Positions 23,751-28,768 of a DNA stretch of 64,000 nt are shown in pieces. Below the pieces are notes generated by a model. That model was not told the DNA's origin and did not search any database. It saw only the letters and a list, made by a program, of their open reading frames with translations. The number at the start of each line of letters is the position of its first letter. Positions within the stretch are counted from its first letter, which is position 1. The stretch is taken from the NCBI GenBank assembly GCA_951406725.2, contig OX597828.1:3410001-3474000 (forward strand), given 5' to 3'. The stretch comes from Octopus vulgaris (Eukaryota). Made by a program: the position numbers and the translations under genes.

Positions 23751-24309
23751 ATTTTAAATATAAGTTTTTGATTTGAGTAAACTGAGAATTAAAATCTGAA
23801 TCATGGATTTACAATGTTTTCCTTAGTATAAACTTACTGAGATTTATTGTTGTCAAAGAATTATTACAATATATTTATATAAATTATTTTAGTTAACTCT
23901 AGATATTAAACAAAAATCAGTATAGTTTACAGATTATAGTTGTTTGATATCTAACTTATGTAGAAGAGCACACATTTACAGGGAGAGAAAGAAGCTGGTG
24001 AGTCGCTCAAACATTTAAGATGTGGTGTATCAGAACAAGTTCAATTAATGAAATTTAATCTAGAAACGAAGTAGTATCGTCGACTTACGAGAGATTGCTG
24101 AGCACGGATTTTGTCTCTCCGTATTCTCTTGATTTGATCGTAAATGGTTGCAAATACCCATTGCAATCAACAGTTTCGATATATTTTATATGCTAGAAAA
24201 ATATAATGATTTACAGTGCGCCATTCTCTTAGCCAATATATGAGTATTTCAGAGTTGAATGTGTAGCGATACCGACAAATATAGTAACATAGTAGGAAGT
24301 TATGTACAG

Positions 24310-24366
<57 letters not shown>

Positions 24367-24370
<4 letters not shown>

Positions 24371-25386
24371 TGAATGGAGACAAGAAGTGGAACGAACCGA
24401 CAAATCGAAACGAACCTGACGCGGGGCGCTGTCAGACAATAATGTGATAATTAAAAATATATGCATACATACAAACATATATGTACGTACCTACATCTTC
24501 ATGTATATATACATGCATATATAAATAAATATACATAAGTACAGGACGCCACAACATATATATTTTTAATTATCACATTATTGTCTGACAGCGCCCCGCG
24601 TCAGGTTCGTTTCGATTTGTCGGTTCGTTCCACTTCTTGTCTCCATTCAATTTTTATATAAATATTTAAGACGCGCAATTCTCTCCCTTTGCTTTACCCT
24701 CCCCACTCTCGCTCCCTCTCACTCTTCCCTTTTTCTCTCTCTTAGCCGCGTGTCCCCCTACTCCTTCCTTCTTTCTCACTCCCAGCTTAAAAACTTTCTC
24801 TCTTTCGCACGCTGCCTCTGCTACTGAAAAGTCTTGCTTCCCTACGCTGCCACACGACATCTTTCCTCTAGCCAAAAAAAGGCCTTTTTCGTCTGTTTGG
24901 TTTTTCTCATTTGTCCTCTTGTTTTTTCCCGTATTGTATTCCCTTTTTATTTCTCGTCTTGTATTTTTTTGTCCATGTATTTTTATCTTGTATTTTATTG
25001 TGTAGTTTTATTGTTACATCCTGTTTGTGTTCTTACCCGTTTTACCCCGCTGCTTGGAATTTTATTTTAATTCTCTCGCAGGAAGGCCTAGTTAACGAGT
25101 GTCTTGTCTTGCCTTCGAAACACGCCTGAGTTAACTAGAGACAGCTGATGACGGTGGATTTTTCCTTGTGTAGCTTGTCCTGTACTTGTTTTCTTGTAAA
25201 AAATTTTTGGATTTTTCCTTGTGTAGCCTGTCCTGTACTTGTTAATTTTTTTGTTTTTCCCGTTTCTACGTCTTGTTGTGGCGTCCTGTACTTACGTATA
25301 TTTATTTATATATGCATGTATATATACATGTAGATGTAGGTACGTACATATATGTTTGTATGTATGCATATATTTTTAATTATCAC

Positions 25387-25390
<4 letters not shown>
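24367..25390. mobile_element. Non-coding element: 810-nt unit with terminal redundancy plus junction-spanning inverted piece, in (TA)n
   Basis: Direct repeat atatatttttaattatcacatta at 24558-24580 and 25368-25390. 24367-24556 is the reverse complement of 25274-25390 joined to 24581-24653. Related copy at 48955-49400 (-). Confidence 0.8.
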
Positions 25391-25437
<47 letters not shown>

Positions 25438-25595
25438 AATATTCTATTGAATGGTAGGTCATGTTCCTCTAGCTTTCAGCTGGTATTGCCTCCATTTAAA
25501 TCATAATTTGGAACTTAGCTCAATTAGAGCTAGCCCGTTTCTGAGCATTGTTAAGTTAAAAATCTCTACTTAACATTTTATAATATACATACATA

Positions 25596-25819: not shown

Positions 25820-26271
25820 TGCTGTATTTCGGGACGGTCATTTTTTTTCCAAATAAACACATGCACTATATATTTTTTCGTCACTCCTTTATTACTGTCC
25901 TGATTTTGTTATTTCAACTTATGTCCATTGTTCGGAAATCTTTAGTCACACATCTGTGACCTCTTCAGTATCACTTTTCGTTTTCGTGTGTCTTCTTGCT
26001 CCAATTACTCCATTCTGTTCTTCTAAGATGTGTATCCTTATGCGCACATAAAGATACACATCTTAGAAGAACATAATGGAGCAAGTGAAGCAAGAAGACA
26101 CACGAAAACGGTGTCGCTGAAGAGACCACACATGTGTGACGAAAGATTTCCGGACAATGAGCATGAGTTAAAATAAGAAAATAAGAACAGTAATAAACGA
26201 GTGAAGAAAAAATATATAGTGCGTGTGTTTATTTGGCAAAAAAAAAAATATGACCAACTCGAAATACAACA
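25820..26271. mobile_element. Older diverged palindromic element containing an HHR motif
   Basis: Inverted arms around ttatg-cgca-cataa (26038-26051). The + arm 26112-26156 has tgtcg-CTGAAGA-g..cacacatgtgtgac-GAAA-gat-TTC-cggaca. Confidence 0.75.
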
Positions 26272-26402: not shown

Positions 26403-28768
26403 TATATATATATATATTTATACGCACGAAATTGCCTCACTGGCTGATAACTGATGAGTAACTGAGAACTTTCTGTGTCTATTCTCTGTTCGTCTGTCCA
26501 TTTACTATACGTTTTTTTTTTTACCATAAATATATATATGCAAACAATATCACTAGCGCACACTTAATGTGTGTTATTAAACGCTCGTATCTGCATTAAT
26601 TCGTTTACGTAGGTCTTTTTCATGATGTATAATGTTAACATCCACAGTATTCTTCAAAGCTATGCGAAATGAAATCGTCCCAGAAGTGAACGTAAACAAT
26701 AGATATCAATAATTTGCAGTTTTTCCTCTTCATCGGTGTCGGGTAGTTATTAGTGTTTACCAATACACATACATGAAGCAAATGATATTGTTTATATTAT
26801 TTAGCTGCATCTAACACAAAATTTGAATATACATAAATACATACATATATATATAAATATATGCGTGTGTGTGTGTGTGTGTGTATACGTATATATGTTT
26901 ATTTAGTCATACATATTTGCACATACACGTACGCTCACACACGCACACCCCACAAACATACACATATGCACATATACATATATGGTAGACTTGCCGAACA
27001 TGCTCCTAATGAAGAGCAACCGATGTTGATCTTGACCTCCGGTAGAAAACAAAATTGACGCAAAAAATGGAAGCATCTTCGCATCCCCCACATATATTTA
27101 ATTATAATCTTTGTTTTATGTGGTGACTACCAAGGTTAATTAAAATAATTTAATTACCGTTTTATAATATATTTTATAAACTTAAAACACTAAGGTTAAT
27201 TAAACTGATTTAATTACCGTATATTTAAGAATCATTGTTTACGCGTGATAACTATTAAGACTAATTAACTGACCTAATTCCGTTTTATAGTATATTCTAT
27301 AACCATTGTTTACATGTCCGGCTGCTAAGAAACTACTATTCTCCGCGTCTGTTTTGTGTCGTTAATCTCCTCCATTGTGCCAGTATTCCTTCTGATGAAT
27401 AGGTTACTAATCATGTGTTATGTAACTTAAGTTGGATACCCGAATACTTAGAAACAAGGAGAATTTCGGCCTCTATAAAACACTTTTCCCTATCTGTGTA
27501 GCTTCCGCTCTATAATGAACTTATTTTCGTAAATTGGACTCTGTACTTATGAAGTTTCCATCGAGCTAACAGTCACCTCTCTTACACTTTAACAGTAACA
27601 AATTCCAGTTATTTGGTTAGAAGTCAGAGTTCACAATTCTATGTTCATATGAAATCTCTACAGCTCTACAAAATTCCCCAAATACCACTCACCTTTCAGC
27701 TATATTTTGCTCGGTTTATCCCCTATTACCGAACTTCCAAATATGCTTCAAACCATTTTTCTTTCCACTGATGCCCCAACGATTTTCTAGACGTCAACCT
27801 TTCTTCCTTTCTAATATAATCTGATCATTGACTGACTTTTGAAATCAATCCCTTTCACCTGATCCTCTTTATATCCGGCATGTTCTGTTAACTAATTCGT
27901 TGTAAGATAGAATTACGTTGATTGCCTTGACCGATTCCATCAACCACATTTCTCTACCAACGGACGCTTACAAACAGCTAACCCCGAGCGCTTCCCCTAT
28001 ATCTTTAGAAATGTTTCAGTGACGGTCAAACGCAGCTGACCTACCCATGTATATATTTAACAATACACACTGCTACACTCATATCTTACAACGCTCTTCT
28101 TTACTTTTCGCATACACGCGCCTACTTCATGCAGCCTAAAGAACCAGAAAAACTCTAATTATGATCCCTCGATTTGCTAGAATGAGCTACCAAATCTCTC
28201 TTAATCACACGATACATAATCCGAAAACGACAGCAGTGACTTTTATACGTCTTACATGGACTGCATTACTATTGAAGGAAGTCAGAGCATAGAAAAATGT
28301 GCACGACAACCAAGCATCTACGAATGTTAAAAAAGACAAAAAAAAGACAGCTAGCAACCTAAAACGCATCAACAAATGCTAAAACACCCTGTCTTTGATG
28401 ACTTTATATATTGATAAACGCAGAGAACAATATAGTAGAAAATACGCCAGTTGTTTTAATTCGGTTTCTCAATGCGAAGTTCAAACAAGATTAAAGAAAT
28501 GCTTGTACAGTGGTTGCAAACGAGGCAGCAAATATTTGGCTGATATTCCTACAAGATAACATGAATAGGGATAACAAATCCGCTACAATGAGAGCCAAAA
28601 CACCCACGAGTAACCCCCTATATTGGATAATGGGGTCCGGGATGTAGTGTCTCTGAGAAAAGACGGGTTGTTCACGGCTGGAACGCATTTAATCATTGAC
28701 TTTGCTCGATCAGAGCTGACCTAACCTTGCTGATTATTAATAATTTCTAACATGCTGAGGACGCAGCA

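Follow-up and report, generated by a model that had tools for sequence, protein, structure and literature searches.

A dispersed non-coding 810-nt repeat of Octopus vulgaris with the layout of Penelope-like elements and a rewired hammerhead predicted to cut

In the 64,000-nt stretch of Octopus vulgaris DNA analyzed here (the window, to which all coordinates below refer unless a locus is named), we identified an 810-nt non-coding repeat which, on balance, is probably a unit with the layout of a Penelope-like element (PLE), likely pasted by a helper into a TA microsatellite, carrying a rewired hammerhead that is predicted to cut and would likely permit copying from a circle. The unit (24558-25367) is contained in a main arm on the plus strand (24558-25390), which consists of one 810-nt unit and 23-24 nt more and ends at a short fixed 3' end, here called S. 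To its left lies an inverted, 5'-truncated arm (24367-24556, minus strand) that covers unit positions 717-810, continues to position ~96-103 of the next unit and ends at a long fixed 3' end, L. The two arms together lie between TA target tracts, (TA)28 at 24312-24367 and (TA)23.5 at 25389-25435. As a preliminary description of this DNA had claimed, the inverted arm reads across the end-to-start junction of the unit: in reverse complement, 24367-24556 gives a gap-free alignment with the unit end followed by the unit start, with two substitutions, both in the end part. The same description had the unit starting and ending with a common sequence of 23 nt, which we find as a direct repeat of 24 nt on the plus strand (24558-24581 and 25368-25391, spacing 810). 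It is the overlap of a partial tandem, and an LTR or a target-site duplication was rejected. The main arm runs 24 nt beyond the unit junction, and the next ~73 nt, the tail between S and L at the end of the inverted arm (24367-24439, minus strand), are carried by the inverted arm only, again in agreement with the earlier claim that the linear copy lacks this continuation. Inverted matches are found between 24439-24556 and 25274-25391 (118 nt, 98%) and between 24352-24462 and 24558-24668 (111 nt, 97%, in part TA). The plus strand of the main arm also shows a 36-nt internal duplication (25155-25243, spacing 53) and, just 5' of S, an AT-rich hairpin-like stretch (25300-25372), which is still recognizable in the oldest subfamilies and is a candidate protein-binding or reverse transcriptase start signal.

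The repeat is dispersed in the genome, in hundreds of copies. A search of 2.8 Gb in 227 contigs with 24580-25300 as query gave 1273 first-look candidates, 40 of which were scored, and two shorter queries brought further loci. The 90 loci obtained represent 59 distinct insertions with 79 arms, a sample biased to long, close copies. While the 5' starts of these arms are scattered, 38 of the 3' ends are at L, 31 at S and 10 elsewhere, so that 69 of 79 arms end at two points ~75 nt apart (unit positions ~21-24 for S and ~97-103 for L in the stricter alignment); TA repeats flank 60 of these 69 ends. Because most of the sampled arms end at S or L, the 23-nt terminal repeat of the preliminary description is explained as an arm of 1.03 units ending at S, and its junction-reading piece as an arm ending at L. 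Of the 38 arms that reach the tail end at L, 37 also begin before the unit junction. Head-to-head pairs make up 12 of the 59 insertions; ten of them combine one L with one S, none combines L with L or S with S, and two have one end that is unassignable. Arms clearly longer than one unit include those of 1011, 1103, 1109, 1134, 1209, and 1319 nt; where arms above 810 nt start at 726-752, the alignment has in part run on into TA, and these arms were not scored as longer than one unit. No long arrays were found among the 79 sampled arms, with a maximum of 1.6 units. The subfamily of the window copy has a divergence of 3.2%, and a longer, autonomous version of the 810-nt family was looked for and not found.

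These recurrent ends bear on the reading that the structure is a DNA-level event at this locus, such as fold-back repair, an extrachromosomal DNA circle or an assembly error. The flanks are simple repeats, and at the joint between the arms the public contigs of four runs carry 9-10 letters of the unit end before 24558, below the 31-letter threshold for bridging, with 24500-24542 skipped as a repeat. We nevertheless consider such an event highly improbable, since the two-armed geometry recurs with the identical two end points at 10 of the 12 two-armed loci, on different contigs, and is also seen in an autonomous PLE family of this genome (family A).

The layout of the window copy is the published PLE architecture in a non-autonomous form, and as such it is ordinary for PLEs. 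These elements are described as partial tandems with an inverted 5'-truncated copy and a tail of 30-40 bp (Craig et al. 2021, PMC8557442), and in vitro a PLE protein has been shown to cleave each of the two strands and to extend it, with two internal start sites on the RNA bounding the tail (Frangieh et al. 2024, PMC11167929). In the portions of these two papers that we draw on, PLEs, including the non-autonomous Chlamydomonas MRC1, have in common with the 810-nt repeat the 5' truncation, the partial tandems, the inverted 5'-truncated copy, a tail at one end, a (TA)n target (Hydra and Naiad) and two start points of reverse transcription. The repeat differs from these PLEs in having no ORF and a hammerhead that is not of type I, and its tail of ~73-79 nt is longer than the published 30-40 bp. 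The strict pairing of one L with one S was counted here for the 810-nt repeat and is a further point of difference.

An ORF with reverse transcriptase and GIY-YIG is absent from the unit, and none, including the ORFs of the autonomous families A, B, and D, runs into the hammerhead motif at any of 208 motif-bearing loci. Families A and B have two fixed ends each in this genome, and A also forms head-to-head pairs. The spacing of the ends is ~75-79 nt in the window subfamily and its sister subfamily, ~78 nt in A and ~118 nt in B. Family A has a short single ORF of 717 aa with RWK, DKT, a CxCX5C linker and, at its C-terminus, GIY-YIG, and is putatively assigned to the Hydra clade from these motifs in comparison with the published description. 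Pfam gave no name to this ORF, with a sub-threshold GIY-YIG match on its C-terminal part (E 0.005). Divergence is 1.6% in family A and 3.2% in the window subfamily, which we take as similar age, and one of the 59 insertions of the 810-nt repeat is joined 5'-to-5' with a truncated A copy without TA between them. Based on the tail spacing, the similar age and this one chimera, the young Hydra-type family A might be the likeliest helper of the 810-nt repeat. A nucleotide comparison of the unit with family A gave no convincing similarity; B and D were compared at the protein level only.

Several observations on these PLEs were made in passing. Family A (L122, 2390-4901) gave 22,631 first-look candidates and has a variant type I hammerhead with a CCGAAGA core and extra bases before GAAA. 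Family B (L243 and L352) has a linker rich in Asn, and the stem II of its canonical type I hammerhead is identical in sequence to the corresponding helix (d:b) in the 810-nt element. Family D (L350 and L351) is a very young Neptune-type PLE with a 775-aa frame and 0.1% divergence, found as head-to-tail tandems of 4.27 kb with 99.5-99.97% identity. At L109/L130, ~170 nt of intervening sequence link an arm of the sister subfamily to an inverted truncated family-A copy. Between a family-B copy and a sister-subfamily copy in one TA tract lies a third small element (L152, 1617-1830), which has two arms, a tail and a type I hammerhead. At L022, and for a sister subfamily at L251, the same LINE-like family is located at or near the 3' end of the element, which hints at targeted insertion; beside L022, the remainder of a family-A copy past the LINE was not found within 9.5 kb.

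Arms cross the unit junction without a seam for up to 1.6 units. Rare variants coincide between passes within an arm at 11 of 1842 positions and between paired arms at 6 of 1305 positions, ~11-14 times more often than between separate insertions (0.0004 per nt, 857 pairs). Both arms and both passes derive from one template lineage. A seamless multimeric or circular template is thereby supported, although this sharing fits a circle and a homogeneous tandem transcript alike. The preliminary description was thus right that a local inverted duplication cannot yield the layout and that the template was contiguous over the junction, as seen from the seamless arms and the shared rare variants. Its reading of the layout as the footprint of a circle or a tandem stands as regards a multimeric or circular template, but this footprint corresponds to the PLE layout already in print and does not single out the circle. 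As the 3' ends are fixed and not spread round a circle, the layout alone is no proof of one.

Alternatively, the sole templates of the same PLE-type element could have been linear transcripts that read through partial tandems and stayed uncut; the hammerhead would then be slow or protein-dependent and dispensable for insertion, and homology-guided template switches would remake the tandems. The cut site is contained in most copies, several of which contain two, and no arm of the window subfamily exceeds 1.6 units. The tandem at L015 joins two different subfamilies, which shows that template switching also occurs, and 4.27-kb tandems are formed by the autonomous family D. In vitro, according to the portions of Frangieh et al. 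(2024, PMC11167929) that we draw on, Anolis Poseidon uses unprocessed RNA and its hammerhead needs protein. We still regard copying from read-through alone as unlikely, in that lengths would only shrink in each generation without circles unless the switches are seamless, and 5' ends are enriched just past the predicted cut (see below); the rare variants shared between passes fit both models. A cut that would likely permit copying from a circle is part of the reading preferred below.

The preliminary description saw no canonical hammerhead in the unit, only a remnant of stem II with GAAAC at 25082-25121. The first part holds, as the fold that we propose is non-canonical: Rfam returned no ribozyme match in 24300-25500 at E<=10, only sub-threshold miRNA-like matches on the AT hairpin, and a canonical type I, II or III hammerhead or another Rfam RNA was rejected for lack of a match. 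The second part does not hold, as a complete, covarying, rearranged core is predicted at 25045-25156, and this rewired hammerhead is a candidate for the alternative ribozyme that the description had proposed to look for. All parts are on the plus strand. Strand c (25045-25049), whose predicted partner is the strand following CUGAUGA, is followed by hairpin Pa (25050-25081; base 25050-53 with 25078-81), an arm of a predicted four-way junction, and by strand d (25082-25087), the 5' strand of stem II with G10.1, which pairs with 25111-25116. A stem III extension (25088-25138; 25088-96 with 25130-38) encloses block S (25099-25108), with the stem III 5' strand, the GUC triplet and the stem I 5' strand, and block G (25111-25123), with the stem II 3' strand, GAAA and the stem III 3' strand. 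The linker between blocks S and G is 2 nt, and the predicted cut is located in block S between 25103 and 25104. Block C (25140-25156) contains the stem I 3' strand, CUGAUGA (25145-51) and strand a. Every core nucleotide of the hammerhead (CUGANGA, GAAA, NUH) is thus present, in the order c, Pa, d, stem III extension, S, G, C, a. The window copy has a U.G wobble at the first pair of stem I, which is C-G in most copies.

That 25045-25156 forms a rearranged hammerhead fold with covarying stems is well supported as a structural model. In the genome, a pattern of block G followed by block C gave 2226 matches and its reversed control 14, and the S-G-C pattern gave 1440 matches and its control none. 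A core-independent anchor, c-Pa-d, gave 3279 matches vs 113 for the control; among 30 anchor loci fetched, 29 were family members, of which 28 keep the block order and 19 match the two core words exactly (by eye). Covariation was assessed in an alignment of 38 related rows (A2), chosen by eye for intactness and many of them found by core patterns, so that the invariance of the core in it is partly by construction. In A2, 94.4% of cells are paired vs 39-49% in slid controls, and 14 of 28 pairs have changed on both sides across subfamilies, including three of four in stem I, one of five in stem II, two of four in stem III and one of five in helix c:a; with related and partly pattern-selected rows, these shuffle counts are not probabilities, and each subfamily change is one event. 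Helix c:a is the weakest (85% paired); its first pair carries an uncompensated change in three loci. The cleavage triplet obeys NUH in all 38 rows, with H17 being C in 20, U in 13 and A in 5 and never G, and N7 varies. The minimum-energy nested fold has -27.0 compared with -15.6 for the nested skeleton of the proposed model, in which the pseudoknot helices are left out. Two motifs per locus are found in L013, L015, L251, and L252.

The topology of stem II sets this fold apart from known hammerheads. The strand that precedes GAAA is not paired with strand a, directly after CUGAUGA, but has its stem II partner in the upstream strand d. In 21 readable loci with CGUUC as stem II 3' strand, d has the compensating C in 16, U in 2 and G in 3 (by eye); the three G cases resemble sporadic mutants of other subfamilies, and a corresponding change is absent from strand a. 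The canonical type SGC pairing, in which the stem II strand directly follows CUGANGA, was rejected because covariation with the strand on the GAAA side is seen for the upstream strand and not for the downstream one. With c, Pa, and d contiguous and strand a directly after A9, a four-way junction is predicted between A9 and G10.1. We also rejected a splicing event that brings CUGAUGA and stem II together: what looks like a 3' splice site at 25078-81 forms the base of a covarying hairpin (the equivalent in other subfamilies being GCGG, GCGU or GCAAU), and a spliced joint of CUGAUGA and stem II was not present in the contigs of four runs.

Each of the six hammerhead permutations in the part of Eckert et al. 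(2023, PMC10085705) that we draw on needs a stem II strand right after CUGANGA. The type SGC hammerhead, HRIMA-1, of the same source resembles the present fold in its S-G-C order, a 2-3-nt linker between stems I and II, two pseudoknots and a full core. In type SGC, however, CUGANGA is followed by the stem II partner, whereas here the partner is a fourth, upstream strand and a four-way junction is predicted between A9 and G10.1. The split stem II breaks the premise of the six permutations, and we have therefore not filed the fold as type SGC. Retrozymes, as far as described in the portions of Cervera and de la Pena (2020, PMC7229834) and Li, Clavereau and Pollet (2026, 10.64898/2026.07.22.740005) that we draw on, are likewise non-coding, seamless tandem units with a hammerhead in every unit, and PLE mobilization with a circular RNA intermediate has been proposed for them. 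They have type I hammerheads and mostly units of 150-450 nt (51-972 in the preprint), often as multimers, whereas the present repeat, known from its sequence alone, has an 810-nt unit, arms of at most 1.6 units and a core that is split and non-circularly permuted. We did not find the four-strand d-S-G-C topology in print, and a search by title and abstract, with most subscription journals outside its scope, gave no description of an animal retroelement whose hammerhead is permuted or has a split core.

The rewired hammerhead fold, as predicted from sequence, is common to the 810-nt repeat and the 3' ends of Naiad PLEs. In the portions of Craig et al. (2021, PMC8557442) that we draw on, Naiads are reported without a canonical hammerhead and no fold is proposed, and the 3' end of Naiad_Ovul is marked 'HHR_half_core' (File S1). 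The published 3' ends of Naiad_Obim and Naiad_Ovul have the d-S-G-C layout with a hairpin before d; they differ from the 810-nt repeat in stem II sequence, with G10.1-C11.1 kept, and the Naiads encode protein and differ in primary sequence, while the repeat is non-coding. A 19-nt motif of the Naiad tail gave 698 matches in this genome at up to one mismatch and none for the control. One of 30 such loci (L385) has a broken reverse transcriptase upstream on the same strand, with no endonuclease between it and the motif. The sampled Naiad tails are 9.6% diverged vs 3.2% for the window subfamily, and as the tails look older, the helper and the donor of the fold may differ.

The 5' ends of copies lend modest support to cutting in vivo, as judged from their positions in the genome. 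On the minus strand, 110 TA-flanked 5' ends lie 0-10 nt ahead of the stem II 3' strand, corresponding to ~+1 to +9 past the cut, compared with 44 in the next 20 nt upstream and 18 in an 11-nt downstream window with a narrower anchor; the excess over the upstream side is ~4.5-fold per nucleotide, the three windows using anchors of unequal reach (reversed controls 13, 36, and 0). Among 47 distinct loci listed, starts are at +1 in one, ~+2 in seven, +3/+4 in six, +6 to +9 in 32 and elsewhere in one (by eye). The excess is thus broad and without a spike, and at +6 to +9 a TA of the linker can mimic the flank. Two patterns for a sharp start at the cut gave five loci each, an unfair count as neither can match a TA flank directly before the cut. 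Most copies read through the predicted cut site; in the window subfamily, one of 79 arm starts (at 553) falls within 9 nt past the cut, in a sample biased to long copies, and of the 30 Naiad loci two start at the cut, 600 bp apart.

The lack of a sharp spike of 5' ends at the cut, the weak c:a helix and the missing stem II after CUGAUGA, which every published permutation needs according to the portion of Eckert et al. (2023, PMC10085705) cited above, would suit a fold that is real but non-catalytic, that is, a hammerhead-derived structure that binds protein or pauses reverse transcriptase. We judge this improbable: NUH is kept through three H bases, N7 varies freely whereas the remaining core positions are fixed, and Naiad retains G10.1-C11.1 despite a different stem II. 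Moreover, at the point where the 5' ends lie, copying of the stem II 3' strand is already complete, and presumably no helix is left to stall the enzyme.

A hammerhead that cuts is accordingly the reading we carry into a proposed mechanism. A partial-tandem copy would first be transcribed. The predicted action of the four-strand hammerhead (d, S, G, C) is to cleave this transcript after 25103, and two such cuts would free an 810-nt monomer that is possibly ligated into a circle. From the in vitro work of Frangieh et al. (2024, PMC11167929), in the portions that we draw on, and from the observed ends, we infer that a helper reverse transcriptase/GIY-YIG protein nicks both (TA)n strands and that cDNA starts at two internal sites of one RNA lineage, which are ~75 nt apart and serve one strand each. 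Two 5'-truncated products, one ending at S and one at L, would then be joined head to head, the joining itself being observed; one product ends at L, and that arm therefore reads over the unit junction. Copies of cut linear RNA would stop just past the cut, and uncut or circular RNA would give longer ones of up to 1.6 units. In its most specific form, to which we give somewhat less than an even chance, the proposal is that a seventh, four-strand hammerhead with a four-way junction between A9 and G10.1 is active as the overlooked ribozyme of Naiads and of thousands of non-coding repeats derived from them, and makes unit-length circles as templates for a PLE dimer, which would start from two fixed sites on both TA strands. 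If the fold cleaves, the published premise of a contiguous CUGANGA and stem II strand is broken, and an animal genome contains a non-circularly permuted hammerhead, which would explain why Naiads were scored as hammerhead-less; standard descriptors would miss such split hammerheads everywhere. A small, young, protein-free family with two fixed starts would also be a direct substrate for studying tandem and inverted PLE insertion and the question of the circular template.

Three other features were noted in the window. At 25841-26244 there is a fold-back element with 128-nt arms, 88% complementary and 148 nt apart, whose right arm (~26117-26150) resembles a type I hammerhead core (CUGAAGA ... 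GAAA). Short direct repeats of 32, 29, and 23 nt are located at 27129-27313, and 1768-2140 contains two tandem SINE-like units of 184 nt that are 94% alike.
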